From: an uncultured Verrucomicrobiae bacterium
GTDB taxonomy: Bacteria > Verrucomicrobiota > Verrucomicrobiia > Chthoniobacterales > UBA10450
Assembly (NCBI GenBank): GCA_963791565.1
Contig: CAWBSX010000004.1
Coordinates: forward strand, 372,601-436,600
Direction: 5' to 3'
DNA: 64,000 bases
Under the pieces are notes generated by a model that was not told where the DNA came from, ran no database searches, and saw only the letters and a list, made by a program, of their open reading frames with translations. A program made the position numbers and the translations under genes. This document shows positions 10,479 to 54,729 of the stretch, piece by piece (within the stretch, counting starts at the first letter, position 1; each line of letters starts with the position of its first letter).

Positions 10479-10698
10479 TTTGCCTAACGAGTAGTTAATT
10501 CGCTGCTAAAACGCGGCTGTCCTACCGCGTTTCAACCGTTGTCCCAAAAGCGGAACGGTCACATCCCAAGCACGACACGTTTCCGATGGACTCGTAAAAT
10601 GATCCACATTCTCAAGTGGCTGATTTAATGGTATTTGTGACTTGTTTTTGGCGGTGGCATAGGCCTTGCAAATAGAAGCGGCCTAACCAAACAAACCA

Positions 10699-10947
10699 AT
10701 GAAAAACAAAAACACTTATTCGCTTCTCGTTCAGTCCCAGGAGAAGGGTCGCTCGATTTTCGAAGCTTCGATTTATGGCCTCGTGATTCTCTGCACCGTT
10801 TTCTCCGCCTGGTCGTTCGCGGCGCATTCGATCATGTTGCCCGGAATGAACCACGTGGACAAAAACGCGGGGACGGAAATGGCCGCGCAAGCAGCGGCGG
10901 AGAACCCTGTCGCCATCGCGAGCAACGCCGACGCCAACGCGCTGTAA
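10699..10947 (+). CDS. Small single-pass membrane protein preceding the permease array
   Basis: 82 aa with one helix, IYGLVILCTVFSAWSFAA. It is preceded by the most AT-rich intergenic stretch of this region. No homology recognised. Confidence 0.35.
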   Translation: MKNKNTYSLLVQSQEKGRSIFEASIYGLVILCTVFSAWSFAAHSIMLPGMNHVDKNAGTEMAAQAAAENPVAIASNADANAL

Positions 10948-10980
10948 TCGTGGCGTTGCTAAACGCCTAACGAGTCCTGC

Positions 10981-13443: not shown

Positions 13444-13503
13444 TTCGTATGCGAGAAGAAGCGCGGCGCGACACTCTGGGTAGCGCAAGCGTCTCGCGCG
13501 CCG

Positions 13504-13535
13504 GTTTCGGTGTCTCGCCGAAACGAACTTTTTTT
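13504..13535 (+). terminator. Candidate rho-independent terminator after paralog 1
   Basis: Stem GTTTCGG (13504-13510) pairs with CCGAAAC (13518-13524). After 4 nt there is a T7 run (13529-13535). Confidence 0.45.
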
Positions 13536-13575
13536 CGAGCAAAGTCCACATCGCCTAAGGAGAGGAGAAACTTCG

Positions 13576-15987: not shown

Positions 15988-15997
15988 GAACGCCAAC

Positions 15998-18430: not shown

Positions 18431-18448
18431 TTCGCCTAACGAGTCCTA

Positions 18449-20863
18449 ATGGAAACAACCCTTCGCGACATTCGCTATGGCTTGCGCACCCTGCGCAAAA
18501 ATCTCGGCTTCACCGCGGTGGCGGTGGTCGCCCTCATGCTCGGAATCGCGAGCACGACCGTCATCTTCAGCGTGATCAATGGCGTCCTGCTCCGCCCGCT
18601 GCCTTATCCGGACGCGGATCGGATCGTCACCATCTCGCAGACCATCGCCGCTTCGAATATTGCGCGCGGAGCGACAGCGCCGGCGAATTACGTCGATCTG
18701 GCGGCGCAGTCCGATGCCTTCGTCGCCATGGCTGCGTCGCGTGGCTGGCAGGGAAATCTCACCGAGGGCGACATGCCCGAACGTCTGCGCGTGACCATGA
18801 CGACGACGAACTTGTTTCAAGTTTTTGCGAGCGCGCCGATCCTCGGTCGCGGTTTGCAAGCGGCGGATGAACAGCCCGGTCGTTCGAATGTCGCCGTGCT
18901 TAGTCAGGGTTTGTGGGAACGGAAATTCGGGAGCGATCGCAACATCATCGGTCGCGAAATTCGTTTCGATGGCGAACCGCGCACCATCGTTGGCGTGATG
19001 CCGGCCAGTTTTTCACCGGATGATTACGGCGAACTTTGGGTGCCATCGCCTTTCGGTGTGCCAACGCATGCCTTGCGGCCGACGCAAGACCCGCGCCGAA
19101 TGCGCGACAGCAATTATCTCGATGTTTATGCGCGTCTGAAACCGGGCGTGACTTTGCAGCAGGCGCAAACGCAGTTGAGCGCGGTCATGGCGCGTTTGGA
19201 AAAAGATTACCCCGACGACAACATGGGCGAAGGCGTCGCCGTTACGCCGTTGCAGGAAGACAAAGCGGGCAGCATGCGGCCAGCGCTGCTCATGCTGGGC
19301 GCGGCGGTTGGATTTCTTCTTCTGATCGGTTGCGCGAACGTGGCGAACCTGCAGCTGGCGCGCGCGGCAGCGCGGTCACGCGAAGTTTCCATTCGCGCCG
19401 CGCTGGGCGCGGATCGCTCACGACTCGTTAGGCAACTTCTGACCGAAAGTATTTTGCTCGCGCTGATTGGCGGCGCGCTGGGAATTCTGGTCGCGGCCTG
19501 GGCCGTGCCGGTTTTGATGGCGATGGCGCCGCCCGCCTTGACAAGCTTCAAGGAAATTACACTCGATCGCGGCGTGCTCTTGTTCAGCCTGATCATTTCA
19601 TTACTAACTGGCGTGCTCTTCGGGCTGGCACCGGCTTTTCAAGCCTCATCGGCGAATCCGAACGACTCGTTAGGCGAAGGCGAACGCGGCAGCACGGCCA
19701 GTCACAGCCGCAGCCGGTCCGTTCTGATCGCGACGGAAGTTGGACTAACACTGGTCCTGCTCATCGGCGCGGGATTGCTCATCAGAAGTTTCGGGAAGGT
19801 CACCAAAGTCGATCCCGGTTTCACGCCGGAGAACTTACTTGTCTTTGACGTCGGCCTTCCGCCCGCGACGGACGACGCGCACAATCTCGCCTTTTATCAG
19901 CAGGTGGTGGAACGCGTGCAGGCTGTTCCCGGTGTGATGCGCGTCGGCGCGGTCAGCCGGTTGCCGTTCTCCGGCGGTAACAGCGGCCGCTCCTTCAATC
20001 TTCCCGGCAGCGACAAAAACTACGACGCCGACATTCGCGTGAGCACGCCGGATTATTTTCGCACGATGAACATTCCGCTTTTGCGCGGACGCGTCTTTAC
20101 TGAACAGGACACGAAAGATTCTGTGCGCGTTTGTGTGATCAACGACGCCACCGCGCGGATGGCGTTTCCCGGCGAAGATCCGGTCGGCAAATTCGTCGTC
20201 AATTTCGGACCGGACAGCGAGAAGCTGCAGATCATCGGCGTGGTCGGAAACATCCGGCATCTCGCGCTCGACACCGCGCCGCATCCGGAACTCTATCAAC
20301 CACTCGGCCAGGCAAAATGGCCGCGCATGTTCATCGCAATGCGAAGCGCCGTGGGAAATTCGCTCGCGTTATTACCGGCCGCGCAGAACGCGGTCTGGAG
20401 CGTCGATCGCAACGTCGCGCTCGGTAATGTACGCACGATGGAAGACACGATCGCGCGGACGTTGTTGAAGCGAAAATTCACCATGACGCTGCTGACAATT
20501 TTCGCCGGCATCGCCGTCGCGCTCGCCTCGATCGGTTTGTATGGTGTGATGTCGTATTCCGTTTCGCAACGCACGCGTGAGATCGGAATTCGCATGGCGC
20601 TCGGTGCGCAACGTGCGGATGTGCTGCGACTGGTCGTTAGGCAAGGGATGTTACTAACCGCGATTGGCGTCGGGCTTGGGCTGGCCGGTTCGCTTGGCCT
20701 AACGAGACTTATCTCGAGTTTGCTCTTTGGTATCAGCGCGACGGATGTCAGTACCTTCGGCGCGGTTTCGATTTTGCTGCTCGCGATCGCGTTACTGGCC
20801 TGCTGGCTGCCGGCGCGGCGCGCGAGTGGCGTCGATCCGATGGTGGCGCTACGAGCGGAGTAA
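18449..20863 (+). CDS. ADOP-type orphan ABC permease, paralog 4
   Basis: 804 aa. METTLRDIRYGLRTLRKNLGFTAVAVVALMLGIASTTVIFSV ... [19 protein letters not shown]. Confidence 0.9.
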   Translation: METTLRDIRYGLRTLRKNLGFTAVAVVALMLGIASTTVIFSVINGVLLRPLPYPDADRIVTISQTIAASNIARGATAPANYVDLAAQSDAFVAMAASRGWQGNLTEGDMPERLRVTMTTTNLFQVFASAPILGRGLQAADEQPGRSNVAVLSQGLWERKFGSDRNIIGREIRFDGEPRTIVGVMPASFSPDDYGELWVPSPFGVPTHALRPTQDPRRMRDSNYLDVYARLKPGVTLQQAQTQLSAVMARLEKDYPDDNMGEGVAVTPLQEDKAGSMRPALLMLGAAVGFLLLIGCANVANLQLARAAARSREVSIRAALGADRSRLVRQLLTESILLALIGGALGILVAAWAVPVLMAMAPPALTSFKEITLDRGVLLFSLIISLLTGVLFGLAPAFQASSANPNDSLGEGERGSTASHSRSRSVLIATEVGLTLVLLIGAGLLIRSFGKVTKVDPGFTPENLLVFDVGLPPATDDAHNLAFYQQVVERVQAVPGVMRVGAVSRLPFSGGNSGRSFNLPGSDKNYDADIRVSTPDYFRTMNIPLLRGRVFTEQDTKDSVRVCVINDATARMAFPGEDPVGKFVVNFGPDSEKLQIIGVVGNIRHLALDTAPHPELYQPLGQAKWPRMFIAMRSAVGNSLALLPAAQNAVWSVDRNVALGNVRTMEDTIARTLLKRKFTMTLLTIFAGIAVALASIGLYGVMSYSVSQRTREIGIRMALGAQRADVLRLVVRQGMLLTAIGVGLGLAGSLGLTRLISSLLFGISATDVSTFGAVSILLLAIALLACWLPARRASGVDPMVALRAE

Positions 20864-25539: not shown

Positions 25540-28500
25540 ATGCCGCGGAACAACGAGCTGCGAAAAATTCTCCTCATCGGCTCCGGCCCGATCGTGATCG
25601 GGCAGGGCTGCGAGTTCGATTATTCCGGCGTGCAGGCCTGCAAGGCTTTGCAGGAAGAGGGCTACGAGGTCGTGCTGGTGAACTCGAACCCGGCTACCAT
25701 CATGACCGATCCGGAATTCGCGGACCGCACTTACATCGAGCCGATCACGCCGGAAGTGATCGAAGCGATTCTCGAGCGCGAAAAGCCGGACGCGATTCTG
25801 CCAACAATGGGCGGCCAAACCGCGCTCAACGCCGCGATGGAATTGAATCGCAACGGCGCGCTCGCTAGGCACGGCGTGAAATTGATCGGCGCGAACGCGC
25901 AGGCCATCGCGAAAGGCGAAGATCGCCAGCTTTTCAAGGAAGCGATGTTGCGCATCGGTCTCGACGTTCCGCGCTCCGGCATCGCGCACAATCGCTCGCC
26001 GATGCGAACCGCGTCGCGGACACGATCGGAACTTTTCCGCTCATCATTCGACCCGCTTTCACGCTCGGCGGCACCGGCGGCGGCATCGCCTACAATCGCG
26101 AAGAGCTCGAGGAAATCGCCGAGCGCGGGCTCGCGCTTTCGCCGGTCACGCGAAGTCTTGATCGAGGAGTCGCTCGTCGGCTGGAAGGAATTCGAGATGG
26201 AAGTGATGCGCGACCACGCCGACAACTGCGTAGTCGTTTGCTCGATCGAAAACTTCGATCCGATGGGCGTGCACACCGGCGACTCGATCACTGTCGCGCC
26301 GGCGCAAACGCTGACCGATCGCGAATATCAATTGATGCGCGACGCGTCGTTCGCCGTGATTCGCGAGATCGGCGTGGAGACCGGCGGATCGAACATTCAG
26401 TTCGCCGTCAATCCGGACAACGGCCGCATGGTGGTGATCGAAATGAATCCGCGCGTCTCGCGTTCGAGCGCGCTCGCTTCGAAAGCCACCGGATTTCCCA
26501 TCGCGAAAATCGCCGCCAAACTCGCGGTCGGCTACACGCTCGACGAAATCAAGAACGACATCACGCGCGAAACGCCGGCGAGCTTCGAGCCAACGATCGA
26601 CTACTGCGTGGTCAAAGTTCCGCGCTTCACTTTCGAAAAATTTCCGCACGCCGACCCGACTCTAACGACGCAGATGAAGAGCGTCGGCGAAGCGATGGCG
26701 ATCGGCCGCACTTTCAAGGAGGCGCTGCAAAAAGCGCTGCGTTCACTCGAGATCAAGCGCTTCGGTCTGTGCGGCGACGGCGAAGGAAAAGCGCGTCGAT
26801 CCCGAAACATTGCGTCTCAAGCTCGCCATTCCGAATGCCGAGCGCATTTTCCATCTCGCGCAGGCGTTCCAGGACGGCATGCGATCGACGACGTCTTCGA
26901 GCTGACGAAAATCGACCGCTGGTTCCTGCACAATGTCGAGCAGATCGTGTAGGGCAGAACTGCACAGCTGGCAATCGATCGACTTGCGCCGAGCGAAGAA
27001 GCTCGGATTTTCCGATCGGCAACTGGCGATCGCGCACGGAACTTGAAAGAACAGACGATTCGCGCAACGGCGGAAAGCAGCAGAAAGTCATCCCCACTTA
27101 CCGACTGGTCGATACCTGCGCGGCGGAGTTCGAAGCGTTCACGCCGTATTACTATTCCACCTACGGGATCGAGAACGAGATGCGCCGCGACGCGAACGGC
27201 GCAAGATCATGATTCTCGGCGGCGGGCCGAATCGCATCGGGCAGGGAATTGAATTCGATTACTGCTGCGTGCACGCGGCTTTCGCGCTGCGCGAACTCGG
27301 ATTCGAAACCATCATGGTGAACTCGAATCCGGAAACGGTTTCGACCGATTACGACACGAGCGACAAACTCTATTTCGAGCCGCTCACGCTCGAAGACGTG
27401 CTCAATATTTACGATCAGGAAAAGCCGGAAGGTGTGATCGTGCAGTTCGGCGGACAAACGCCGCTGAATCTCGCGGCCGGTTTGCGCGCGGCCGGCGTTC
27501 CGATTCTCGGGACGCAACCGGAGAGCATCGAGATGGCGGAAGACCGCAAGCTTTTCGCCGCGATGCTGGACAAGCTCGGTTTGCGGCAAACGCCGAGCGG
27601 ATCGGCGGTGAGCGCCGACGGAAGCGATAGCGATCGCGGAACGAATCGGTTATCCAGTGCTCGTTAGGCCGTCGTTCGTCCTGGGCGGTCGCGCGATGGA
27701 ACTGGTTTACAACGACGACAGATCTCGAGCGTTACATGCAGAGCGCGATCGAGGTCAGCTCGGATCGGCCGGTCTTGGTCGATCGGTTTCTCGAAGACGC
27801 GATCGAGGTCGACGTCGATTGCATCGCTGATGGTGAGACTAGCCGTGATCGGCGCGATCATGGAGCACGTCGCAGCTCGCCGGCATTCATAGCGGGGACA
27901 GCGCCTGCGCCATCCCGACTTTTTCGCTCTCGACAAAACGTGCTCGACGGAAATCTCGCGCGCGACGAAGGCGATGGCGCGCGAGCTCGAACGTGCGCGG
28001 GCTGATGAATGTGCAATTCGCGGTGAAAGGCGACGACGTCTACGTGCTCGAAGTGAATCCGCGCGCCTCGCGCACCGCGCCGTTTGTCAGCAAAGCGATC
28101 GGCGTTCCGTTCGCAAAACTCGCCGCCAAAGTGATGACGGGAAAGACGTTGAGCGAACTCGGCTTCACCAAAGAAATTATTCCGAAACATTTTTCGGTGA
28201 AGGAACCGGTCTTTCCTTTCCTGCGTTATCAAGGAAGCGACACTGCGCCTGGGCCCGGAAATGAAATCTACCGGCGAAGTGATGGGCATCGATGCCGATC
28301 TCGGTCTTGCTTACGCCAAGGCGCAGATGGCCGCGCCGCCGCCCTGCCGAAGATCAGGAAATGTTTTCATCAGCGTGAAAGATTCGGACAAGGAAAGCGT
28401 CGTGCCATTGGCGCGTGATTACATCGCGCTCGGTTTCGGGATTATCGCGACCAGCGGAACGGCGGCGATGTTGGCCGCGGTCGGAATTCCAGTGCACCAG

Positions 28501-28750
28501 CGTTTTCAAATTACGCGAAGGCCGGCCGAACGTGCTCGATCGGATCAAGAACGGCGACATGCAGTTGATCATCAATACGCCGAGCGGAAAAATTCCACGC
28601 GAAGATGAAATCAAAATGCGCAGCGGCGCGCGCACATTGAAAATTCCGATCATCACGACGATGCGCGCGGCGCAGGCCAGCGTACACGGCATTGCTTCAC
28701 TGCAGAAAAGCAGTCTGCAGGTTAAGACGTTGCAGGAATATCACCTGTAA
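25540..28750 (+). pseudogene. carB: Carbamoyl-phosphate synthase large subunit, reading frame broken by about 17-19 single-base indels
   Basis: CarB sequence is recognisable end to end, but only by hopping frames. Examples are [30 protein letters not shown]..., [117 protein letters not shown] and REGRPNVLDRIKNGDMQLIINTPSG. Track ORFs 25540, 26238, 27209, 27736, 27993, 28261 and 28415 are fragments of this gene. Confidence 0.85.
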
Positions 28751-30509: not shown

Positions 30510-31058
30510 ATGAAAATCAGCTCCTTCGTTTTTCTTTTCGCGCTCGTTGTTGGTATGAGTGCGCCGTTTGCGGTTGCGCAGGATGTGCAACAAGCAGTCG
30601 CCGTAGTTCAACCGACCGCCAACAGCAAAGTCACCGGCACGATCACGTTCACGAAATCAGCCGATGGTGTGAAAGTTGTCGGCGACATTAATGGCCTCAC
30701 ACCGGGCAAACATGGTTTCCATATCCACGAATTCGGTGATTGCTCTGCGCCCGACGCCACCTCGGCTGGCTCTCATTTCAATCCGAGCAAACACCAACAC
30801 GGTGCGCCGGATGCGAGCGATCGTCATGACGGCGACATGGGAAACATCGAAGCCGATGCTTCCGGCAAAGCACATGTCGATTACACAGATAAAATGATGA
30901 AACTGAGCGGCGCTGATTCCATCATCGGTCATGCGGTGATCGTGCACGAAAAAGCCGATGATTTGAAAACGCAGCCGACCGGCGATGCCGGCGGTCGTCT
31001 GGCGTGCGGTGTAATCGGAGTGGCAAACCCTAACATGTCTCTGCATAGCACTCGTTAG
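30510..31058 (+). CDS. sodC: Periplasmic Cu/Zn superoxide dismutase
   Basis: Start at MKISSFVFLFALVV. It has GFHIHEFGDC and GDAGGRLACGVIG. The stop is the TAG of the motif copy at 31051. Confidence 0.9.
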   Translation: MKISSFVFLFALVVGMSAPFAVAQDVQQAVAVVQPTANSKVTGTITFTKSADGVKVVGDINGLTPGKHGFHIHEFGDCSAPDATSAGSHFNPSKHQHGAPDASDRHDGDMGNIEADASGKAHVDYTDKMMKLSGADSIIGHAVIVHEKADDLKTQPTGDAGGRLACGVIGVANPNMSLHSTR

Positions 31059-31348
31059 GCGCCACTCAGACACCCCTGAACGCCGCTGTTCCGTAACTGT
31101 CTAATATCGCAGTTCTTTGTTAGTGCTGAGCGGATCCGCCTGGGGCGGATTCGACGGGGGACCCAAATTTCGCGCAAGCGATCGGGGCGCATGACGCTGC
31201 GGCGTCAGGAGCACTTGGTGGCTCTAGCCCGACAGCTAACTCCGTAAGCGAAACACCGAGAGCAGGGAGCGATTCCTGAGTCTCAAAAAAAGTTCGCCTT
31301 CCGCAAATAGTGCGAGCGCAAGCCGCAAGGCTTTAGAAGGAGATAGTC

Positions 31349-32653
31349 ATGAATGCCGTCAGGAAACTGGTGGTGTTTGTGGTGCTCGTGTCGGTCGCGA
31401 TTGCGATCGAGCGGGCGTGGTTAGGTGCAGTGCAGCCGCAAATCGCGACGCGGGTCGCGGTCGAGCAGCTCAATGGAAACGACAATGCGTTTCGGCAACT
31501 GCGTTTGTTCGAAGTGTTCAAGGACATCGCGGATGGCGTCGTGGTCATCGCAGCGATCGGACTCGCGTGGTGGCTTGTCGCCAAACCGGCCAGCACGCGG
31601 CGCGATTGGCCACGTTTGATATTGATCGGCGCGTTGCCGCTCCTGGCAATGAGCGGTTGCGTGCGGCCCTTCGACACGCCGGAATATGCGGAGATCAATA
31701 CCTCCGAGACGGGATTCCTTATTCCGCTCGAAGGCGACAGCACCGCGCAGGCAAAATTCCAATCGGAAGAATATCTGCGCGATTTGAAAGTCGCAGCCAA
31801 ACGCGTGCAGATCACGCATCGTTGGTCGCAGGAAGGACGGCTGCCGGGAAACGGCCGCTGGATTCCGACCGTGCGTTTGATCAAAGTGAATCGTTCGCCG
31901 ATCACGCGCGAATGGACAGCGGAAGCTACGACCGGCACGGCGGCGAAGAACCAGGCCATCTGGATCGAGAGCTCCGATAGCGTCGGATTCAGTATGGGAT
32001 TTACCTGCACTGCTTTCATTCCCGAAGAGCAGGCGGCGAAATTCCTGTATTGGTATCCGAGCGGCTCGCTCTCGGAAGTGATGGATGCCGAAGTGCGCGG
32101 CCGTATTCAACAAGTATCGGCTGAGATCGCGGCGAAATATCCGCTCGACGCCTTGCGTGCACGCAAACAGGAAATATCCGACGCGGTGAAGACTGACGTC
32201 ACGCAATTCTTCGCGCAACGCGGTGTTGTGATCACGACCGTCGGAATGTTCGGCGGCATGACCTACGAGAACGGCGAGATCCAGAAGGCGATCGACAACA
32301 CGATCATCGCACAACAGCTCAAAGTGGTGAACGAAGCGAAATGGGAAGCACAACAGCGCGATAACGATCGCGTAACGCTCGAGGCAAACGCAGTAGCGGA
32401 ACGGGCGCGGCGCATTGCCGCTGGCGAAGCGGATGCGAAAAAAATCGCGGCTGATGCCGAAGCACAGTCGATTCGCGAAGTCACGAAAGCTCTCGCGGAC
32501 GCCAAAGAGAATCCGTTGCTCTATCAACTGCGCGCGCTCGAAGTAGAACGCGCCCGAGTCGAACACTGGAACGGTCAATACCCAAGCTGGTTCATGGGCA
32601 CCGCGGCGAGTTCGCCGAATCTGATGCTGCAAATGCCCGCGCCCCCGCGCTAA
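31349..32653 (+). CDS. SPFH/band-7 domain membrane protein
   Basis: 434 aa with AGGAG 7 nt upstream, N-terminal helices, and a coiled Ala/Glu-rich region (AERARRIAAGEADAKKIAADAEAQSIREV) typical of SPFH proteins. Confidence 0.6.
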   Translation: MNAVRKLVVFVVLVSVAIAIERAWLGAVQPQIATRVAVEQLNGNDNAFRQLRLFEVFKDIADGVVVIAAIGLAWWLVAKPASTRRDWPRLILIGALPLLAMSGCVRPFDTPEYAEINTSETGFLIPLEGDSTAQAKFQSEEYLRDLKVAAKRVQITHRWSQEGRLPGNGRWIPTVRLIKVNRSPITREWTAEATTGTAAKNQAIWIESSDSVGFSMGFTCTAFIPEEQAAKFLYWYPSGSLSEVMDAEVRGRIQQVSAEIAAKYPLDALRARKQEISDAVKTDVTQFFAQRGVVITTVGMFGGMTYENGEIQKAIDNTIIAQQLKVVNEAKWEAQQRDNDRVTLEANAVAERARRIAAGEADAKKIAADAEAQSIREVTKALADAKENPLLYQLRALEVERARVEHWNGQYPSWFMGTAASSPNLMLQMPAPPR

Positions 32654-32662
32654 GTTGTCGAT

Positions 32663-33688
32663 GTGGAATTGTTGACCATCGGCGAAATCAGGCGACGCGC
32701 GCAGAACGGTTTCGTTACTGCGCGCGTTCATGTGCAGATCAGTGCGGCAGAAGCGAAGGCAACCCGCGAAGGAAAACCCTACTGCGAAATGACGCTGGCC
32801 GATGCGCGCGATCGCATGACCTTGCGCGTCTGGAGCGATCATCCGGAATATCGCGCCTGCGAAACATTACAAGCTTCCGAGTTCATCGAGATCAGCGGAG
32901 AATTTGCGCAGCACCAGCAATTCGGACTCGAGGCGAAGCAGTGGAACGTTCGTCGCCTAACGAGTGATGAAATCGCCGACCTGCTGGCCGGCCCGCCGGA
33001 GTTGCGCGCGAAACAAACCGCGGACTGGAGTCTGATTACGGAACGAATCAAAACGATCGGCGATCCTCGTCTGCGCGCGTTATGCGAAGCGTTCATCACG
33101 GAATTCGGCGAACGATTTCGCCGTACCGCGGGCGCGCGCAGTTATCATCACGCGCGCCGCGGCGGATTAGTCGAGCACGTCGCGCAGATGTTGCGCACGG
33201 CCGATGCGCTCGCGCCGCTTTATCCGCAATTGAATCTCGATCTCCTCATCGCCGGAATTGTTTTTCACGATTCCGGAAAACTTTGGGAAAACCATCTGCC
33301 GGAAGATGGCTTTACCATGGGTTTCGACGAGCGCGGCGAATTGATGGGGCACATTTCGATCGGGATTGAGCTGGTCAATTCGCTCTGGCGCAAAGTGAAT
33401 TTGCCTAACGAGTGGAATGGCCTGTCGCCCGCGGCTGAAGATGTGCGGCTGCATCTTTTGCATTTGATCGGCGCGCATCATGGCGAGCCGCAATTTGGTT
33501 CGCCGGTTAGTCCGAAAACTCCGGAGGCGATGGCGCTCAACTACATCGACAACCTCGACGCTCGTCTGGAGATGTTCGCCGCGGGATATCTCGTGGCGAA
33601 ACCAATCGCCGATCGAATTTTTGATCGCGTCCGGCCTTTGCCCGGAAATTTGGTCAAGCCACTGGAAAAATTTTCGCCGGCGAACTAA
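32663..33688 (+). CDS. OB-fold plus HD-domain phosphohydrolase (YhaM-like 3'-5' exoribonuclease family)
   Basis: 341 aa. The N-terminus has an OB-like segment (KATREGKPYCEMTLADARDRMTLRVW). The HD domain shows HHARRGGLVEHV and FHDSGK. Confidence 0.65.
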   Translation: MELLTIGEIRRRAQNGFVTARVHVQISAAEAKATREGKPYCEMTLADARDRMTLRVWSDHPEYRACETLQASEFIEISGEFAQHQQFGLEAKQWNVRRLTSDEIADLLAGPPELRAKQTADWSLITERIKTIGDPRLRALCEAFITEFGERFRRTAGARSYHHARRGGLVEHVAQMLRTADALAPLYPQLNLDLLIAGIVFHDSGKLWENHLPEDGFTMGFDERGELMGHISIGIELVNSLWRKVNLPNEWNGLSPAAEDVRLHLLHLIGAHHGEPQFGSPVSPKTPEAMALNYIDNLDARLEMFAAGYLVAKPIADRIFDRVRPLPGNLVKPLEKFSPAN

Positions 33689-34413
33689 TTGCCCGGCGGG
33701 CCCTGCGTGGCAATGACCATTTGATTGCCCTGCAGGGTGATCGTCTTCACGTTCGGCCAAAACGTGTGCTGATTATTTTTTCGCAAGCTCTCCCCGAATC
33801 CAGTGGTGAAGCTACGACCGAAAGTTGACGCGAATGCGCGTAGGAACCCCCCCGTGATTTGATGACCATTCGCTTCGATCCATTCCGGATCGAAATAAAA
33901 ATTGTTATCGTCGTAACTGAATCGGAGGCGGGTACTGCCGTTGAACCAACGCTGTTTCATCGAGGGTAGCGGAGCGGCATTTAGCGGCACACTCACTTCC
34001 AGTGTCGCCATCGAATCCGCGAGGGCGACGTGCATTCTGTTTTTGCGACTCGCGAAATCCGGATGGCGTGCAATCAGCGCGTTCAGGTCATCGGCGGTGA
34101 AAGCAACCGTGCTTGCTTGATTGGTGGCGAGCGCGTTTTTCAGCTGCGCGAACTTGGCGCTGGCCGCGTTGAATTCGCCATCAGTCGGCATCGTAATCTT
34201 AGTGTCGATCGGATCAGCCGTGGTTAGTTTTTTGACCGCTCCCAGGTAAAGAAACCAACATGCGCAAACGAGAATGATGCAGCCGACAAACGCCGCAAAG
34301 AGGACGCTGAGGCAGCCGCCCGCGAAACAACCGCAACCAGAAGGCTTGGGCGGCGGAAGAACGACTTGCTGTTGCGGAGCTGCGGGCGCGGGAACTGGCG
34401 GCGGCGTGTCCAT
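33685..34413 (-). CDS. Membrane-anchored hypothetical protein
   Basis: 242 aa with a Pro-rich N-terminus and a Cys-rich hydrophobic helix (GCGCFAGGCLSVLFAAFVGCIILVCACWFLYL). No family recognised. Confidence 0.5.
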   Translation of the reverse strand: MDTPPPVPAPAAPQQQVVLPPPKPSGCGCFAGGCLSVLFAAFVGCIILVCACWFLYLGAVKKLTTADPIDTKITMPTDGEFNAASAKFAQLKNALATNQASTVAFTADDLNALIARHPDFASRKNRMHVALADSMATLEVSVPLNAAPLPSMKQRWFNGSTRLRFSYDDNNFYFDPEWIEANGHQITGGFLRAFASTFGRSFTTGFGESLRKNNQHTFWPNVKTITLQGNQMVIATQGPPGN

Positions 34414-34468
34414 CCGTCCCGTTTAACTGCTCGTTAGGCGCGAAGAAAGCTCTTTTGTTGGCGTGGCG

Positions 34469-34503
34469 AATAAAGAAAAAGCGGCGGTCAATTCGACCGC
34501 CGC
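34469..34503 (-). terminator. Rho-independent terminator of rpoA-rplQ (palindromic, potentially bidirectional)
   Basis: A 9-bp GC-rich stem pairs GCGGCGGTC (34481-34489) with GACCGCCGC (34495-34503). On the minus strand it is followed by TTTTTCTTTATT (plus-strand 34469-34480). Confidence 0.8.
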
Positions 34504-34537
34504 TTTTCTGAACATTCTGCCTAACGAATGGTTACAA

Positions 34538-35011
34538 CTACTCGTTAGTCTCTTTCGATTTCTTGCTCTTCGGCGCAGGCTTCGAATCGGCCGCGCTCTT
34601 CTTGGATTTCGCCTTCTTGGTTGTTTCTGCCGTTTCCGGCTCATCGACAACGACTGCGGCATCGACCCATTCAATGAACGCAACCGAAGCAGAGTCGCTC
34701 TTGCGTTGACCGAGCCGGACGATGCGGGTGTAGCCGCCTTTGCGATCAGCCGAGCGCGGAGCGATGTCGTCGAACAGTTTCTTCACCGCATCCGCCTGAC
34801 GCAACGTGGCGAGCGCAGTGCGTCGCGCGTGCAGCGAGCCTTTCTTTCCCAGCGTCACCATTTTTTCCGCGAGCGGGCGAACCGCTTTCGCTTTGGCGAG
34901 CGTCGTCTTGATGCGGTGATGTTCGATCAAGCTGCAAACCTGATTGGCCAGCAGCGCTTTTCGATGCGCGGCGGTCAGGCCGAGCTTCAAGGTTTTCTTC
35001 TGGTGTCTCAT
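34538..35011 (-). CDS. rplQ: 50S ribosomal protein L17
   Basis: 157 aa. MRHQKKTLKLGLTAAHRKALLANQVCSLIEHHRIKTTLAKAKAVRPLAEKMVTLGK, with a Lys-rich tail. Confidence 0.95.
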   Translation of the reverse strand: MRHQKKTLKLGLTAAHRKALLANQVCSLIEHHRIKTTLAKAKAVRPLAEKMVTLGKKGSLHARRTALATLRQADAVKKLFDDIAPRSADRKGGYTRIVRLGQRKSDSASVAFIEWVDAAVVVDEPETAETTKKAKSKKSAADSKPAPKSKKSKETNE

Positions 35012-35031: not shown

Positions 35032-36072
35032 CTATTCGTGATCAGCCGAGCCATTCATGCTCGCGCCGTCCACACCGACCGGGACTTCCACCAAACCTGG
35101 ATCGAATTTCATCCCAAGACCAAGGCCGAGCTGTTGCAGCTTGTCCTTGATTTCGTTGAGCGATTTTTTGCCGAAGTTGCGATACTTCAGCATCTCAGCT
35201 TCGGATTTTCTGCGCGAGCTGGCCAACCGTGGTGATATTGGCGTTGTTCAAGCAATTGGCGGCGCGGACACTGAGTTCGATTTCGTTCACGCTCATATTG
35301 AGAAGCTTCTTCAGCTTCATGTTTTCCTCGGAAACACCGGCAGGCGTTTCGTCGAACTCGATCACGTCTTCGTTGAAATTCACGAAAACATCGAGGTGAT
35401 GGCGCAGGATCGCCGAGGCCTGGAGCAACGCATCATCTGGCGTGAGACGACCGTCCGTCCAGACTTCGAGGACGAGCTTGTCGTAATCGGTCCGCTGACC
35501 GACGCGGGTGTTTTCCACCGCATATTTCACGCGCGTAACTGGCGAGAAAATGGAATCAATTGGAATAAGACCAATCGGTTGGTCGGCACGCTTGTTCTCG
35601 TCGCCCGTGGCAAAACCGCGGCCGACGCGCACTTCCAGTTCGGCATGTCGAACTTGTGCTTCTTGTCGAGAGTGCAGATGAGCTGCTTCGGATTCAAAAC
35701 CTCGAACCCTTGCGCGAGCTGAATGTCGTGCGCGGTGACTTCGCCTTCTTTGTTGACCGCGAGCGAGAGTTTGCGCGGCTCGTGTTCCGCGGCCTTGAAT
35801 TTGATCCGCTTCAGGTTGAGCACGATGTCGGTCACGTCTTCGACCACGCCGGGCAGAGTAGCGAATTCATGTTGCGCCCCGGTGATTTTCACCGCGGTGA
35901 TGGCGGCGCCTTCGAGCGACGAAAGCAAAACTCGGCGGAGCGAATTTCCGACCGTGTGACCGTAACCGGCTTCAAACGGCTCGGCGACGAACTTGGCGTA
36001 GGTTTCTGTGGAGCCGTCCTCAACTTTGGTGAGGGTCTTCGGCATTTCAAAACGACCGTATCTTACTGGCAT
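35032..36072 (-). pseudogene. rpoA: DNA-directed RNA polymerase alpha subunit with two single-base frameshifts in this sequence
   Basis: The gene is covered by three track ORFs (35527-36072, 35195-35632, 35032-35226). The N-terminal domain reads GHTVGNSLRRVLLSSLEGAAIT. The middle reads ELEVRVGRGFATGDENK. The C-terminal domain reads [20 protein letters not shown] then [23 protein letters not shown]. The frame breaks lie at about 35641-35643 and in the T4 run at 35206-35209. Confidence 0.9.
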
Positions 36073-36228
36073 AGTGTGCCTTTTCCTTTTTCTGACGCGC
36101 CGGGTTACCCCTGACGAGTGCGGCTTACATCTGATGACGTAAACCCAGGGACCAACGGCGCAGCTTCTACAAACTCGCTGCGGGACGTGGAATCAACACT
36201 ACTCCCGCTTTTTTGCAAGCGGCGGATT

Positions 36229-43621: not shown

Positions 43622-45061
43622 CTACTCGGGACGAAGTTGGGGAGTTTCTCGTTCAAGCGACGGGCTGTCCAGTTCCTTTGCTTTCTCCGCATTCATCTCG
43701 TTGATCTTGCGGTGCAGGGTGCGTCGGCTAATCCCGAGCCGTTTCGCGGCCGCGGTGACGTTGCCGTTGGTGCTGGCCAACGCTTGCATAATCAAACGCC
43801 GCTCAGTGTCGTGCAGATCGAGTGGACTGGATTTTTCGCCCCACGCTTTTGCCGGCGTGACACCGCCCGGCAAATTCCGCGGCGCATTTTGCCGCACGCT
43901 GGCCGGTAACTCGCGCACCGTAATTTTCGGACCGTTGGCCATGACCACGCCGTGTTCGATGGCGGTCCGCAGCTCGCGCACGTTTCCCGGCCAATCATAA
44001 TTCAGCAGCAGATTCATGGCGTCGGAAGTCAGTTCGAGGAGCGGTTTCTCGTTCACCTTGCAAAAATGTTTCAGGAAAGTTCGCACGAGCAGCGGGATGT
44101 CTTCCTTCCGCTCACGCAACGGCGGCATGGTGATGTGCACGACGTTCAACCGGAAGTAGAGATCGTCGCGAAATTTTCCTTCGCGGACTAACGAGTCCAA
44201 ATTCTTGTTCGTGGCCGCGATCAATCGCACATCGGCTTTCAGCAATTGATTGCCGCCGACGCGTTCAAAAGCGCGTTCCTCGCTGATCACGCGTAGCAAT
44301 TTAACCTGCGTGCTCGGATCGATCTCGCCGATTTCATCCAGGAAAATCGTTCCGCCGTTGGCTTGTTCGAAACGTCCGATGCGGCGCTCGTGCGCCCCGG
44401 TGAAAGAGCCGCGTTCATGCCCGAAGAGTTCGCTCTCCAGCAATGTCGGCGAAAGTGCCGCGCAGTGAACCGTGACGAATTTCGCTTTGCTGCGTCGGCT
44501 CAGATTATGAATAGCGTGCGCGACCAATTCTTTGCCGGTTCCACTTTCGCCGTCGATCAAGACGTTGGCGTTCGATGGCGCGACCTGACGAATGGTGTCG
44601 AGCACTTCGTGTAACGACGGCGATTCGCCGATGATATTTTCCAGCCCGTAACGCTCATCCACCTGCTGACGGAGCGTGCGATTTTCCTGCTCCAGTCGGC
44701 GCGAAGACAGAGCGCGCGCGATCAACATCTCGACCTTGTCGAGATTGAGCGGCTTGGTCACGAAATCGTAGGCGCCCCGTTTCATCGCTTCGACCGCGGT
44801 ATCGACTGAGCCGTAGGCCGTCATCATGATGCAGATCGGCGGCCGCGACATTTTTAAGGCGCGCTCAATCAAGGTCATGCCGTCTTCGCCGCTGAGCCGC
44901 AGATCAGTGATGAGCACATCGACCTGTTCACGTTCGAGCACATCCATCGCTCCCGCGATATCGGCCGCGACGTAAACGTCATACTCATCTTCCAACAAAC
45001 GGCGCATCCCATCGCGGGTATGCTTTTCGTCATCGACGATCAGTATCGTGCCCTTTGTCAT
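43622..45061 (-). CDS. Sigma-54-dependent response regulator (NtrC family)
   Basis: 479 aa with a receiver domain (DVLITDLRLSGEDG), an AAA+ domain (GESGTGKE, ERGSFTGA) and a C-terminal HTH (AAKRLGISRRTLHRKI). No adjacent histidine kinase. Confidence 0.9.
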   Translation of the reverse strand: MTKGTILIVDDEKHTRDGMRRLLEDEYDVYVAADIAGAMDVLEREQVDVLITDLRLSGEDGMTLIERALKMSRPPICIMMTAYGSVDTAVEAMKRGAYDFVTKPLNLDKVEMLIARALSSRRLEQENRTLRQQVDERYGLENIIGESPSLHEVLDTIRQVAPSNANVLIDGESGTGKELVAHAIHNLSRRSKAKFVTVHCAALSPTLLESELFGHERGSFTGAHERRIGRFEQANGGTIFLDEIGEIDPSTQVKLLRVISEERAFERVGGNQLLKADVRLIAATNKNLDSLVREGKFRDDLYFRLNVVHITMPPLRERKEDIPLLVRTFLKHFCKVNEKPLLELTSDAMNLLLNYDWPGNVRELRTAIEHGVVMANGPKITVRELPASVRQNAPRNLPGGVTPAKAWGEKSSPLDLHDTERRLIMQALASTNGNVTAAAKRLGISRRTLHRKINEMNAEKAKELDSPSLERETPQLRPE

Positions 45062-45075
45062 TTCAAATCAGCGCC

Positions 45076-47022
45076 TCAATTTTCTTTCCCCCAAAGAAAC
45101 GCATCCTCAAACGTCACCCAAGCCGCGACGCGTTGCCGCAAGTTTTTTGCGCGCTCGGTTTCGTTAGCCAGCACATCGTGTTGTTCGGTCGGATCGGTTG
45201 CGAGATTGAAGAACGATTCGTGTGCGCTGGTCACGTCGTAGATGTATTTCCAATCGTCTTCGCGCACCCCGAAAATATCGCCACCCGCGATCGCCATGAA
45301 GAAAGCGCGGTTCGGTTTCGCAGGATCGAACAAACTATAACCCTGCCACTCCGGATCGGGTTCCATGCCTAACAAGTCCACGATCGTAGGATTGAGATCG
45401 ACGTGGCCACCGATTATTTGCGCGCGGCCGCCATTTGGAAACAGTCGCGGACTCCAAAACATCAGCGGCACATGCGTTTCCTCTTCAAAGACCGACCAGG
45501 CGTGGCCGCGTTGCTCGTGCGGATCGGCGAAGGCTTCACCGTGATCGCCGGTGACGACCACGAGCGTGTCATCCGCCAGTCCGCGCGCGCGCAAAGCGTC
45601 GAACATTTCGCCGAGATGCTTATCGGTTTCGTGCACGACGTTGAGATAGGCGGACAAATCTTTTGCCAGGGGCGGCGCGGGTTTTCCGGCGAAGAAATCG
45701 ATCGTCGTCATGCCGGGACTGGCGGGATAAGGATCGTGCGTTTGATCTGTCCAACAAATGGCGAAGAACGACTCGTTAGGCTTTTCGTCGATCCAGCGGA
45801 TGAGACGATCGAAGACGCACCGGTCTTCTGTTCCCCAGGAACTAAGCGGCGGACAACCGACCGTGGAATAATCGTCTAACGAGTCGAAGGCACCGCTTTT
45901 TTCCAAAAGCCAATGTTCGTCTTCCCAATAAAGATTGCCGTTATTGATGTAGGCGGTGCGACATCCGCGTCCGCGCATTTTGGCGGCGAGAGTCGCGGGA
46001 AACGCGCGCGCATCGCCCAGCGCCGCATAATGCCACGGCAAACCCGGGTAGATGGAAAAATTCAGCGTGCGAAAGGAGCAGTAAGTGAAACTGGCATGCG
46101 CGTAAATGTTATCGAAGACGAGCGCGTGAGCCGCTTCCGCTTCAAAGCGCGGCATGGCGTCGTGGATGTATTTCGTTCCGATCGATTCGAGCACGATAAT
46201 GATGACGTTCTTCGGTCGCGCGATGCCGGCCGGCACCCCGAAATACGAACTACTCGTTAGGCCACGCGCCTTGAAGGTGCGAAACTCGTTGGCGTATTCC
46301 GGCGGAAAATCCTTCGGAAACGATGGACGTTGCCCACCTTTCAGACGCAGCGCCGTCGTGCGCAGCAATTCGAAATGTGGACTCAGCCAAAGATGTGTCA
46401 GCTGCTGTTCCTTCCATAAATTTCGTTGCAAAACGTAGCCGGCTGGCCACCAAACGATCGTAAAGACGAGAAGTCCGCGCGTTAGTCTCGGCCAGCGCTG
46501 AGTTCGGATCGCGATGATGAGATAGACTATCGGCACGAGCAGAAGTGCCAGAGCCATTCCAATTCCAAGCCGATCGAAGATGGACGAACGGACCGCCGAT
46601 GCGTTCCCGATCATTGCGAAAAGTTCGAAGGTGATTGGCCGGTTGAAGTAGCGAAATAATCCGATCGAACCAACGCCGTAGAGAGCGCAGAGCGCGAAAA
46701 ACCCGAGGAAGATTCCGCGCGCGATCGCAGCGGCGCGCAGCAAATTTCGCAGAACGAAAACGATCATCGCGCCGATCGCGCCGCAGACGAGCGCGAAAAA
46801 CACATCGGTCCATGAGGACATCAGCAACCCGAGCGAACGCTCGAAGAAATGTCCGAACCATGGCTTATCCCACGTCGCTGCCTTGGTCGCGATGAGGAGA
46901 AGCGCAAGCCACGCGCTGGCGCCGAGCAAAGAAACGCCGGCCTTCCTTCGCGCGTTTTCGGACTCCAGGTATAATCCTTCGATCACGAGCAAGGCTACTA
47001 GCTCGCGCAGTGCGCCGCGCAA
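45076..47022 (-). CDS. LTA-synthase/sulfatase-family membrane enzyme (alkaline-phosphatase superfamily transferase)
   Basis: 648 aa with N-terminal TM helices and a sulfatase domain (VIIIVLESIG, TGDHGEAF). Confidence 0.8.
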   Translation of the reverse strand: MRGALRELVALLVIEGLYLESENARRKAGVSLLGASAWLALLLIATKAATWDKPWFGHFFERSLGLLMSSWTDVFFALVCGAIGAMIVFVLRNLLRAAAIARGIFLGFFALCALYGVGSIGLFRYFNRPITFELFAMIGNASAVRSSIFDRLGIGMALALLLVPIVYLIIAIRTQRWPRLTRGLLVFTIVWWPAGYVLQRNLWKEQQLTHLWLSPHFELLRTTALRLKGGQRPSFPKDFPPEYANEFRTFKARGLTSSSYFGVPAGIARPKNVIIIVLESIGTKYIHDAMPRFEAEAAHALVFDNIYAHASFTYCSFRTLNFSIYPGLPWHYAALGDARAFPATLAAKMRGRGCRTAYINNGNLYWEDEHWLLEKSGAFDSLDDYSTVGCPPLSSWGTEDRCVFDRLIRWIDEKPNESFFAICWTDQTHDPYPASPGMTTIDFFAGKPAPPLAKDLSAYLNVVHETDKHLGEMFDALRARGLADDTLVVVTGDHGEAFADPHEQRGHAWSVFEEETHVPLMFWSPRLFPNGGRAQIIGGHVDLNPTIVDLLGMEPDPEWQGYSLFDPAKPNRAFFMAIAGGDIFGVREDDWKYIYDVTSAHESFFNLATDPTEQHDVLANETERAKNLRQRVAAWVTFEDAFLWGKEN

Positions 47023-47071
47023 CTTTCCTTTTTTCTGGTCTCGTTAGGCGCGCACTGCCACTCTCCGCCGC

Positions 47072-47587
47072 ATGAAGATTTTCCTCGGGATTGTTATCGC
47101 CCTGCTGGTCCTCGCTGGTGGCGCTTATTTCTACGCCTCGTCGTTGCCGGAACAGACCACGCACACGCGCAGCATCACGCTCCAGCAATCGCCCGCCGCC
47201 GTCTTCGCCTTACTCACCGACATGGAGAACATGCCGAAGTGGAATCGCAACATGGAGAAAATCGAAATACTTCCGCCGATCGACGGCAAAGAAGCGACGC
47301 GTCAATACTTCAAGGGCAACATGCAGATGACCATCATCACCAGCGAGAGCACACCGCCGTCGCATCTCGTGCGCACCCTGGGCGACGCGGGCGGCCCGTT
47401 CTCCGGTTCGTGGACTTACGAAATCAAACCGACGAACGGCGGCAGCGACGTCGTGCTGACGGAAGATTCCCACATGAAGAATCCGCTCTTTCGTTTGATG
47501 ACGAAGATTTTCGGCGAAACGAAATATCTCGACGAACATCTCGCAGACATGGCCAAGCACTTCGGCGAAACGGCTACTATTCGTTAG
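47072..47587 (+). CDS. SRPBCC (START/polyketide-cyclase-like) family protein
   Basis: 171 aa with an N-terminal helix. LLTDMENMPKWNRNMEKIE is typical of the SRPBCC/CoxG-like fold. Confidence 0.55.
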   Translation: MKIFLGIVIALLVLAGGAYFYASSLPEQTTHTRSITLQQSPAAVFALLTDMENMPKWNRNMEKIEILPPIDGKEATRQYFKGNMQMTIITSESTPPSHLVRTLGDAGGPFSGSWTYEIKPTNGGSDVVLTEDSHMKNPLFRLMTKIFGETKYLDEHLADMAKHFGETATIR

Positions 47588-47601
47588 GCAGCTACTTCGC
47601 T

Positions 47602-49684
47602 TTACACCACTGGTCGACCCACTCGTTCACGGTCTGGTACCACAAAACCGGAATTCTGTGGCTTCAGGACCCAATGCCCTTCGTCGGGGAAGTAGAGGAA
47701 CTTGGACGGCACTTTGAGACGCTGCAGCGTGGTGAAAAGCTGCATGCCTTCCGCGACATCGAGCCGGTAATCGAGCTGACCGTGCACGACCAGCGTGGGC
47801 GTTTTGAATTTGTCCGCGAACAAGTGCGGCGAAAATTTCCGGTAAAGCTCGCGCTGTTTCCACGGCGGGCCTTTGAATTCCCATTCGTTAAACCAAAGTT
47901 CCTCCGTCTCGCCGTAGGCCGACTCGGTATTGAAGACGCCGTCATGCGAAACGATGCACTTGAAGCGATCGGTGTGGCCTAACAACCAGTTGGCCATGTA
48001 GCCGCCGTAGCTCGCGCCCATCGCCGCTTCGCGCGTTTTGTCGATGAACGGATAAGTCTTTTCCACGTAATCGAGACCCTTCATCAAATCTTCATACGGC
48101 TTGCCGCCCCAATCGCCGCTGATCGCGTCGCAAAATTTCTGTCCGTAACCGGTCGAGCCGTGGAAGTTGATCATGACCACTACATAACTGCCGGTTGCCG
48201 CGAAAAGTTCGGCGTTCCAGCGATACGTCCACGAATTTCCCCACGCGCCTTGCGGACCGCCATGAAGCAAAAACTTCAGCGGATATTTTTTCGACGCATC
48301 AAACCCCGGCGGCTTGATGATGAAGCCCTGCACATCATCGTTATTCGCGCCTTTGAAGGTGAACGACTCTATCGGCGGCATGTCGATTTGTGACAAGAGC
48401 GCATCGTTTACATGCGTAACCTCTGTGACCGCGGGATTCGTTCCGCTCGGCGTCAGTGGAGAAGCTGTTGCGAACCATCGGCGAACTTTCAGGCTTACAA
48501 TCTCATTCGGCACCTCGATCTGAGATATGCTCAAGTACAGACTGTCGGCATCTCCGCCAAAGGCGAGATCATCCGCGTGGCCCATTCGCACAAGCTCAAG
48601 CGCTTTGTTTGTCGCGAGCGATAAAACATAAATCGGCGACATGCCGTGATCCTCGGCGCTGAAGAAAATCGTCTGCGAATCCGGTGCCCAAGCAAAACTG
48701 CCTAACGAACGGTCGAAATCCGCCGTTGCATTTCGCATTTGTGCGGACTGCCGCTGATAAACGATGAGCGATTGCTTATCTGCTTCGAAACCGGCGCGCG
48801 CCATTGATCGCCAGGCGATGTGGTTTCCATCCGGCGAATAGCGCGGCGTGTTGTCGTTACCGGGGCTGGTGGAAATTTTCTTGGGCGACCCGCCGGTGAT
48901 CGGGACGAGAAAGATGTCGTTGTTCGTGCTGGTCGCGCCGACTTCATCGATGTTGCTGGTGTAGGCAACTTCCTGTCCGTCGGGGGAAATGGCGTACATA
49001 TCCGCACCGCCGAGATTGAATGGCGGCACATCGTGATCGCCCGGCGTGATGTCGCGCACAGTCCCCGCGCCGCCGGTGCTAATTACGAAAAGATGGCTGC
49101 GTTTGAAATTCAGTGAACGAAGTCCAATGACGATAAAGCAGTGAGGTGAAGATTTTTGCCTTCACTTTGCTTTTCTCGATTTTCTCGTCGCGGTCCTTGT
49201 TGCAGGCGTCGTCTTTGCAATCGGGAAAAACGGAGGAAACAAAGACGATATTTTTCCCGTCCGGCGACCAGATACCGCCGTCCGCGCCGGTGGAAATATT
49301 CGTGACCTGATGCGGTTCGCCGTCGAGTCCGCCGCTTTCCGGCGTAAAATTGCACATCCAGATTTGCGTCGGATCGGTTGCCTTCGAAGTCCAGATCAAC
49401 TTGGTGCCGTCGGGCGAAAAGCGCGGCCGTTCCTCCTGGTTCTCCGTTTGATTCAAGCGCCGCGCGTCGCCGCCGCTGGCCGGCACAATCCAGAGATGTG
49501 TCTTCTTCGTGTTCGCCGCCAGATCCACATCGACCGCGTCGAAGACAACCCATTTCCCATCGGGCGAGGGCGCCAATCCACCGACGCGTTTCAATTTCAT
49601 CATGTCTTCGAAGGTGAACGGGCGCGTTTGCGCAAAAGACGTGGCGACGAAAAGGAAAACGAGCGTGGGAATTCGGAAGTGCAT
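47602..49684 (-). pseudogene. S9-family serine peptidase (beta-propeller plus alpha/beta hydrolase), one frameshift
   Basis: Track ORFs 49079-49684 (signal peptide plus propeller) and 47602-49059 (GASYGGYMANW, HGQLDYRLD, FPDEGHWV) join if 1 nt is removed near 49104: ...HWTSFTEF / KRSHLFVISTGGAGTVRDITPGDHD. Confidence 0.85.
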
Positions 49685-49761
49685 AGGTTCGCGGCACGCT
49701 CTGGCGGAAGCGGTCGCGATGCAACTTAGGCGCGGCAGGAATTCTGCTTACTCACGTGCCG

Positions 49762-54678: not shown

Positions 54679-54729
54679 GTTGTAGCAAGCGCATTGACGA
54701 TCCCGAGCACGCTGCGCGACACTGCGCCG

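Follow-up and report, generated by a model that had tools for sequence, protein, structure and literature searches.

In the canonical alpha operon, the gene for the alpha subunit of RNA polymerase is found in the order rpmJ-rpsM-rpsK-rpsD-rpoA-rplQ, and in E. coli this operon is autoregulated by S4. Genes that need a change of reading frame are known from programmed frameshifting, as in prfB (+1) and dnaX (-1), for which conservation is a hallmark. As for leader RNAs, an L17 leader has been predicted in Actinobacteria and Proteobacteria, where it immediately precedes rplQ (Eckert and Weinberg 2020, PMC7247131). The genomes of the MFD-LR collection are MAGs obtained from Nanopore reads only, using Flye assembly and one Medaka round (PMC12313526). 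A check by its authors for Nanopore-associated errors pointed to 0.5% of the MAGs, mostly of lower coverage, with reduced coding density (PMC12313526).

The rpoA gene analysed here lies on the minus strand (36072 to 35032, 1041 nt) of a 64-kb stretch of DNA, hereafter called the window. The initial annotation had described it as split across three frames, and this is borne out by translation, by tblastn and by the Pfam matches of the fragments: reading starts in one frame (A), passes to a second (B) and returns to the first (Table 1). The first segment starts MPVRYGRFEMPK... and ends ...LDKKHKFD, the second runs from ELEVRVGRGF... to ...TVGQLAQK, and the first frame is back from (S/T)... to the stop codon; a tblastn search with the repaired RpoA placed residues 287 to 345 at 35211 to 35035, again in the first frame. 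The fragments share out the domains of the protein. The 181-aa N-terminal ORF fragment matches positions 1 to 87 (of 119) of PF01000, the middle fragment matches positions 28 to 74 of PF01193 and 2 to 42 of PF03118, and the 64-aa C-terminal fragment matches positions 41 to 67 (of 67) of PF03118.

Table 1. Features of the rpoA-rplQ locus, with positions in the window
Feature	Position	Strand	Description and support
rpoA segment 1	35647..36072	-	Residues 1-142; part of N-terminal domain (PF01193) and first part of PF01000 insert domain; tblastn with repaired protein, 100%
Site 1, extra dinucleotide	35645..35646	-	AT, or equivalently CA at 35647-35646; throws the frame; alignment to 17 relatives
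rpoA segment 2	35207..35644	-	Residues 143-288; rest of N-terminal domain, linker and first half of C-terminal domain; shifted frame; tblastn, 100%
Site 2, single extra base	35205..35209	-	One A of the A4 run 35209-35206, or the T at 35205; restores the first frame
rpoA segment 3	35032..35204	-	Residues ~290-345; second half of alpha C-terminal domain and tail; first frame; stop codon 35034-35032
Shine-Dalgarno-like purine-rich stretch AAGGAAAAGG	36079..36088	-	6 nt before rpoA ATG; read from the sequence, putative function
Structured leader RNA of the detached rpoA-rplQ	36096..36163	-	~68 nt; ends 23 nt before ATG; alignment, covariation, covariance model
rplQ (ribosomal protein L17), intact	34538..35011	-	PF01196 1-97/97, E 5e-37; starts 20 nt past rpoA stop
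Intrinsic terminator-like hairpin and T-run	34476..34508	-	15-bp stem, 8 GC pairs, loop of 3; ends the rpoA-rplQ unit

The two break points were defined by alignment to 17 relatives, which are among the closest species-representative genomes (about 92 to 93% identity at the protein level and about 81 to 85% at the nucleotide level). According to exact protein look-ups, the proteins of the window all belong to one contig of 613,444 bp present in NCBI and ENA, from a soil Chthoniobacterales (Udaeobacter-like) MAG. The relatives of the window are annotated as soil Chthoniobacterales or Verrucomicrobiota MAGs, and many of those with long contigs are 'MFD...bin' MAGs belonging to the Microflora Danica long-read catalogue. 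At site 1, the window reads TTCGAC-AT-GCC-GAA, against TTCGA(C/T)-GCN-GAA (F-D-A-E) in all 17 relatives. Their protein reads KFD-A-ELEV at this place, and the 'M' of the window reading lies outside the true protein. The break had been placed near 35641-35643 and taken for a 1-nt gap; two bases, CC (35643-35642), stand between ATG and GAA, and the lesion is a 2-nt insertion. The extra dinucleotide lies in the middle of a short inverted repeat, AGTTCG-ACATGC-CGAACT. At site 2, the window reads CAG AAA A(T)CC GAA, against CAGAAGA-CCGAG (QKTE or QKSE) in the relatives. The earlier placing of this second break in or beside the A4 run proved right, and the alignment gives it as a 1-nt insertion. A frameshift-aware alignment of protein to DNA agrees, with +2 nt near 35642 and +1 nt near 35206.

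Since the insertions add up to +3 nt, the length of the gene remains a multiple of three. As it stands, the gene does not contain a single ORF of the usual size (about 330 to 350 codons), which is recovered only if three bases are removed. The product is then a 1038-nt ORF encoding an RpoA of 345 aa, with 92 to 93% identity to relatives, no in-frame stop codon, and matches to PF01193 (1-74/74, E 5e-26), PF01000 (1-119/119, E 2e-30) and PF03118 (2-67/67, E 1e-25).

A pseudogene would be expected to show relaxed selection, with dN/dS rising towards 1, and nonsense substitutions. The dN/dS ratio was calculated by the Nei-Gojobori method against five relatives, each segment being taken in its own frame. 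It was 0.04 to 0.12 for the N-terminal segment, 0.009 to 0.029 for the middle, out-of-frame segment, and 0.025 to 0.065 for the C-terminal segment, compared to 0.011 to 0.067 among the intact relatives themselves. For the middle segment, protein identity to relatives was 97 to 99%, despite a nucleotide identity of 85 to 87%. All three segments are thus under strong purifying selection, without decay. Because these values are like those of intact genes, the frameshifts have left no evolutionary trace, and they are either extremely young or absent from the organism. Broken rpoA genes are rare among the relatives: 79 of the 80 species-representative genomes have rpoA as a single ORF. The sole exception, L069, is itself an 'MFD...bin' MAG, and has frameshifts in rpoA, at other positions, and in rplQ. 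Neither of the two insertions of the window was found in any of the 17 aligned relatives.

These data bear on the possibility that the gene is a true pseudogene, the alpha subunit coming from a second, intact rpoA located elsewhere in the genome. With its three frames and early stop codons, the gene does look like a pseudogene, and the window shows only 64 kb of the genome. Yet dN/dS values of 0.009 to 0.12 in all three segments show no decay, and the gene sits in a conserved orthologous position, together with a conserved leader, rplQ and terminator, so that a second copy is unnecessary. No second copy was found within the 64-kb window by tblastn with the repaired protein and, to our knowledge, duplicated rpoA genes are very unusual in bacteria. 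We therefore regard a pseudogene as very unlikely.

Alternatively, the breaks could be bypassed, either by programmed ribosomal frameshifting (-1 or +2 at site 1, and +1 at the A AAA U of site 2) or by transcriptional slippage. As in prfB and dnaX, an essential gene would then need a frame change. At site 2, a +1 slip on A-AAA after which the lysine tRNA pairs again is conceivable, and a stop codon follows four codons further on in the shifted frame, a layout which recalls that of prfB. The resemblance ends there. Site 1 (GAC AUG CCG AAC) has neither a slippery heptamer nor a repeat, and would need a -1 or +2 shift, so that two different shifts would be required in the same gene. Inspection of the sequence by eye shows no Shine-Dalgarno-like stimulator before site 2, and a run of four A is far too short for slippage by RNA polymerase. 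Real recoding sites are conserved, whereas these insertions are shared by none of the 17 close relatives. Slippage at the A-run, which had been put forward initially, is thus not supported, and bypass in general is contradicted by the lack of conservation. Bypass would moreover have to account for more than 25 other, non-slippery indels nearby. It is the least probable of the explanations considered here, to the point of being hardly credible.

Those other indels were found when the remaining genes were analysed: the same 64-kb window contains at least 25 further frame breaks that are due to indels only. The most affected gene is carB (25540-28747, plus strand), whose coding sequence is scattered across three frames. 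Ten stop-to-stop fragments could be placed one after another on the NCBIfam model NF003671 (carbamoyl-phosphate synthase large subunit), at positions 1-467, 147-204, 543-691, 691-725, 722-764, 777-901, 893-988 and 972-1058, with neighbouring fragments in differing frames. Protein-guided alignment gave at least 14 indels or frame changes in this gene; the guide, an E. coli CarB sequence with 61% identity over 1055 codons, served for frame placement only. Comparison of carB with a related Logan contig (L083, 83% nucleotide identity) showed 11 gaps in 1 kb, of which 9 were extra bases in the window. A tryptophan 2,3-dioxygenase-like gene (about 54.66 to 55.81 kb) has 8 or 9 indels, and an S9 peptidase gene (47.6 to 49.7 kb) has 2. 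Once the frames were corrected, no nonsense codon was left in rpoA, the S9 peptidase or the dioxygenase, and the damage is therefore of the indel type only. For carB, where the check covered the N-terminal 548 codons, two stops were seen in a poorly aligned stretch, and are explained by further frameshifts.

Most of the indels in the window are insertions, and their density is patchy, from up to about 1 per 100 to 230 nt in carB and the dioxygenase to zero over 10 kb in another part. Among the many intact genes are four ORFs in a row of about 810 aa each (10981-20863, about 10 kb), and those for PGM, ScpB, LemA and the TPM proteins.

Several local causes for the indels were tried and rejected. 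The mean longest homopolymer was 2.59 at 27 indel sites, compared to 2.50 in the background. A methylation motif was not apparent either, no 4-mer being enriched at the 27 sites after correction for multiple testing (best raw P = 0.003, 136 4-mers). An association with GATC, TCGA or palindromic hexamers, which was a by-eye impression, disappeared on testing. Three regions with overlapping ORF pairs (39.2-43.6, 50.7-54.7 and 58.7-63.0 kb) were also considered as frameshifts, and turned out to be separate genes whose mechanically assigned starts were over-extended.

Part of the window could be compared with Logan contigs from run ERR11523670. One of them (L081) covers 30663-34960 with 100% identity over 4298 nt, and ends 72 nt short of the rpoA stop codon. 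The other (L082) covers 44960-47764 with two substitutions and no gap. It has the same extra T as the window in the tail of the S9 peptidase gene (around 47644), and both of its substitutions directly adjoin that site. If ERR11523670 corresponds to the same long-read data, this extra T would be a shared error; if it corresponds to independent short-read data, it would be a real indel. Protein look-ups gave no match: none of 10 plausible repaired RpoA sequences had an exact counterpart in a collection of 15 billion proteins, a short query spanning site 1 gave no uninterrupted protein with 100% identity in the protein collection, and exact look-ups for an independent contig, using RplQ, the RpoA N-terminal fragment, LemA, a TPM protein and a carB fragment, were likewise without result.

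The frameshifts might be real but very recent, the sequenced haplotype being a defective variant, from a dying lineage or a minority allele chosen by the consensus, while the main allele of the population is intact. Unrelaxed selection fits lesions too young to leave a trace, and the indel in the S9 peptidase tail is present in two assemblies of material from ERR11523670. For this to hold, however, over 25 indels would have had to arise recently and at the same time in several genes, among them the essential genes rpoA and carB, and all this without nonsense substitutions in rpoA, the S9 peptidase and the dioxygenase, or in the part of carB that was checked, once further frameshifts are allowed for. 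From what is established about the assembly of RNA polymerase, a cell with an rpoA broken in this way could not make a functional alpha subunit. Real and recent frameshifts are unlikely on these grounds, if somewhat less so than a pseudogene.

We conclude that rpoA is intact and functional in the organism, and that both frame breaks are insertions wrongly introduced into the consensus of a metagenome assembly of patchy quality, with a probability of roughly 0.88. Sequence error, one of the alternatives raised in the initial annotation, is favoured because the lesions consist of indels only, selection is unrelaxed, many other conserved genes within the 64 kb show the same kind of break, and the relatives are intact. 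The situation has much in common with the indel errors of long-read-only assemblies (Nanopore or PacBio): small indels without nonsense codons, conserved or essential genes cut into pieces that are highly similar to intact orthologues, many genes hit on the same contig, a long MAG contig, and a lineage whose long-contig genomes are mostly Nanopore-only (PMC12313526). The contig would be that of a long-read-only MAG, probably based on Nanopore reads, with Flye assembly and one Medaka round. The +2 nt and +1 nt insertions would have arisen while the contig consensus was built. The quality of this consensus would be patchy, some stretches being clean over kilobases, while carB, rpoA, the S9 peptidase and the dioxygenase have dense small indels, and the error patches may reflect locally low or mixed-strain read support.

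What speaks against such errors is that the indels do not resemble the classical homopolymer error of Nanopore reads: they show no enrichment for homopolymers or 4-mers, they are mostly insertions, and they are strongly clustered in patches. Our confidence in an artefact is limited mainly by the extra T shared with L082, the meaning of which depends on the sequencing platform of ERR11523670. Read literally, the sequence would mean that a single-copy rpoA is frameshifted, and hence that either an essential gene is recoded or the genome is not viable; its recognition as an artefact averts a false call of pseudogene or recoding. The contig, and probably its MAG, contains patches of indel errors, which would lead to faulty gene predictions for carB, the dioxygenase, the S9 peptidase and rpoA.

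The second particularity of the locus is its gene order. Upstream of rpoA, after a non-coding stretch of 156 nt preceding the ATG, lies a TPM-domain gene ending at 36229, followed further upstream by a second TPM gene and LemA (Pfam). An upstream region of about 150 nt of its own, behind the end of a LemA/TPM operon, and a terminator had been noted before, and both were recovered, the terminator as the hairpin listed in Table 1. No signature motif of S11, S13, S4 or L36 was found within the window. The detachment of rpoA-rplQ from rpsM-rpsK-rpsD, also noted initially, is thus real, but it is typical of the clade. The order PGM-ScpB-LemA-TPM-TPM-rpoA-rplQ is kept in 13 of the closest relatives, and in Haloferula, rpoA is likewise preceded by unrelated genes. 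Among 80 related loci, motifs of L36, S13 and S11 just upstream of rpoA were found only in Pedosphaera-like, Limisphaerales and subdivision-3 loci, which have the canonical order. As the order of the window is shared with its relatives and the motifs of the rpsM-rpsK-rpsD side occur only in other groups, detachment characterises the lineage as a whole (Chthoniobacterales, Terrimicrobiaceae and Verrucomicrobiales), and is not a peculiarity of the source genome.

What is retained from the canonical operon is its end, with rplQ directly after rpoA, followed by a terminator. This adjacency is seen in 79 of the 80 related loci, the exception (L067) being a contig that ends just past rpoA. The difference is that, at this locus and 56 related ones, the rpoA-rplQ pair forms a separate unit downstream of unrelated genes, and has a structured leader of its own. 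The succession LemA-TPM-TPM, leader, rpoA-rplQ and terminator is real, and normal in this part of the Verrucomicrobiota.

The leader (Table 1) has the shape of a long irregular hairpin, made of P1 (GCCG/CGGC), GGU/ACC, P2 (CCCUGG/CCAGGG) and a variable apical hairpin, and is conserved in all aligned Chthoniobacterales and Terrimicrobiaceae loci. RNAalifold predicted 21 pairs, of which 13 have double-sided compensatory changes. Over 53 distinct sequences, 93.3% of the cells were paired, compared to 79.3% in column shuffles (0 of 500 reached 93.3%), and this proportion dropped to 28 to 54% in a control in which the partners were slid. Double-sided changes numbered 162, where 49 were expected. 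The minimum-energy fold of the leader of the window is the consensus structure (-40.3 kcal/mol, z = -2.95). The leader is invariant at CCGUNGGUCC...GGGNAACCCGG, and in most lineages it ends 15 to 25 nt before the start codon. When the leader region was scanned for sigma-70 promoters under a strict rule, none was detected; a TTGACA-like box is visible about 45 to 50 nt upstream of the leader motif in several of the aligned relatives.

The distribution of the leader was then investigated with a covariance model, to which the leader of the window scores 69.8 bits. In a search space of 1.3 Mb (the window and 80 loci, both strands), the model had exactly one match in each of 57 sources, two of them outside the seed alignment, and all 57 matches were directly 5' of rpoA. 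It found no leader at 24 loci, 22 of which have the L36/S13/S11 motifs just upstream of rpoA; the other two are represented by 508 nt of upstream sequence only (L048) and by a sequence that starts inside rpoA (L010). A scan of metagenome contigs that started from the pattern gave 80 loci. At 56 of these, an rpoA gene followed on the same strand 15 to 122 nt further on, and nine more matches, scoring 64 to 81 bits, were at contig ends. The 15 matches without rpoA scored 9 to 25 bits and lacked the structure, and are thus taken as chance matches to the pattern. One true match was on a human-gut contig. The leader heads the detached operon in Chthoniobacterales, Terrimicrobiaceae and Verrucomicrobiales, and probably also in Akkermansia-like bacteria of the gut.

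A search of Rfam 15 with the leader of the window and of six related loci returned only noise, and no family, the leaders already described included. The closest described element is the L17 leader (PMC7247131), which is also a conserved, covarying 5' UTR structure in an operon with rplQ as its sole ribosomal-protein gene. The described leader lies directly upstream of rplQ, and is therefore distinct from the present one, which is found upstream of rpoA and is limited to the Verrucomicrobiota. As with ribosomal-protein leaders, the Verrucomicrobiota leader is close to the ribosome-binding site, as feedback by an encoded protein would need. This position and the invariant nucleotides suggest a protein-binding feedback element. 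We tentatively propose, at slightly less than even odds, that the leader is a previously undescribed RNA acting as a feedback sensor, which would replace the S4-based control lost on leaving the alpha operon. L17, as the only ribosomal protein of the operon, would be a candidate ligand, and the alpha subunit would be another.

At the rpoA locus, this leader RNA is the only feature that potentially represents new biology. A stand-alone rpoA-rplQ pair with a well-supported, unannotated leader is a modest but usable result, and it provides a candidate for autoregulation in a phylum from which hardly any cis-regulatory RNAs are known.

Frame-broken rpoA is probably not confined to the window. In the long-contig MAG 'MFD04580.bin.2.110' (L069, one of the 80 related rpoA loci; 10001-11760), rpoA loses its frame after about residue 44, and rplQ is frameshifted too; the lesions are of the same kind as those in the window but differ in position. 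In addition, short RpoA fragments of 113 to 140 aa (P0200, P0208 and P0209, matched with a query spanning the 2-nt rpoA insertion) are encoded mid-contig on long ENA contigs (9.6 to 17 kb), suggesting that other public metagenome assemblies also contain split rpoA calls. At the position of the insertion, relatives carry AGTTCG-ACGC-CGAACT, in which the palindrome at the centre is CG; with the two extra nucleotides it is extended to CATG. Their placement within an inverted repeat (see table) may be a coincidence.

Features in the window, with strand and remarks
Feature	Window position	Strand	Remark
Four consecutive ORFs, ~804-825 aa each, head to tail, all unbroken	10981-20863	+	
carB (carbamoyl-phosphate synthase large subunit), frame-broken	25540-28747	+	
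Short inverted repeat AGTTCG-ACATGC-CGAACT	35637-35654		2-nt rpoA insertion at exact centre
Conserved covarying leader RNA, ~68 nt	36096-36163	-	Covariance-model match 36090-36168
S9-family peptidase, frame-broken	47595-49724	-	Stretch of L082 compared: 2621-2801
Tryptophan 2,3-dioxygenase-like gene, frame-broken	54660-55810	+	

Three other genes of the window are interrupted by small indels, and the four long ORFs listed in the table were used solely as a contrast to these indel-ridden patches. At least 14 indels, single extra bases for the most part, divide carB into at least 10 frame segments; its 'out and back' shift from ~25994 to 26150 corresponds to one indel pair, across which the ORF stays open. 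Within ~750 nt, the tryptophan 2,3-dioxygenase-like gene holds 8 to 9 small indels. Once its frame is corrected, it shares 75% identity with relatives, and a search of the corrected gene for in-frame stop codons found none. In the S9-family peptidase the frame is broken twice by a +1 shift, at ~49105 and ~47644. The extra T at the latter is common to the window and to Logan contig L082 (run ERR11523670), and the sole differences between the two are substitutions at 47639 and 47642, in or adjoining a GGTACC site that is itself right next to the ~47644 indel. This extra T may be either a read error common to both sequences or a genuine frameshift of the tail.

Among the window, the 80 related loci (L001-L080) and the 80 metagenome-contig loci from the pattern-first leader scan (L084-L163), the leader lies directly 5' of rpoA at every locus where rpoA-rplQ is separated from rpsM-rpsK-rpsD, and loci keeping the canonical alpha operon are devoid of it. 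No family in Rfam 15 matched it. In the window, as in most other lineages, just 15 to 27 nt lie between leader and rpoA ATG; the nearest relatives, which are Udaeobacter-like (L001-L018), have a spacer of 85 to 110 nt there that is rich in repeats and weakly conserved. The leader is also present on one human-gut metagenome contig (L122).
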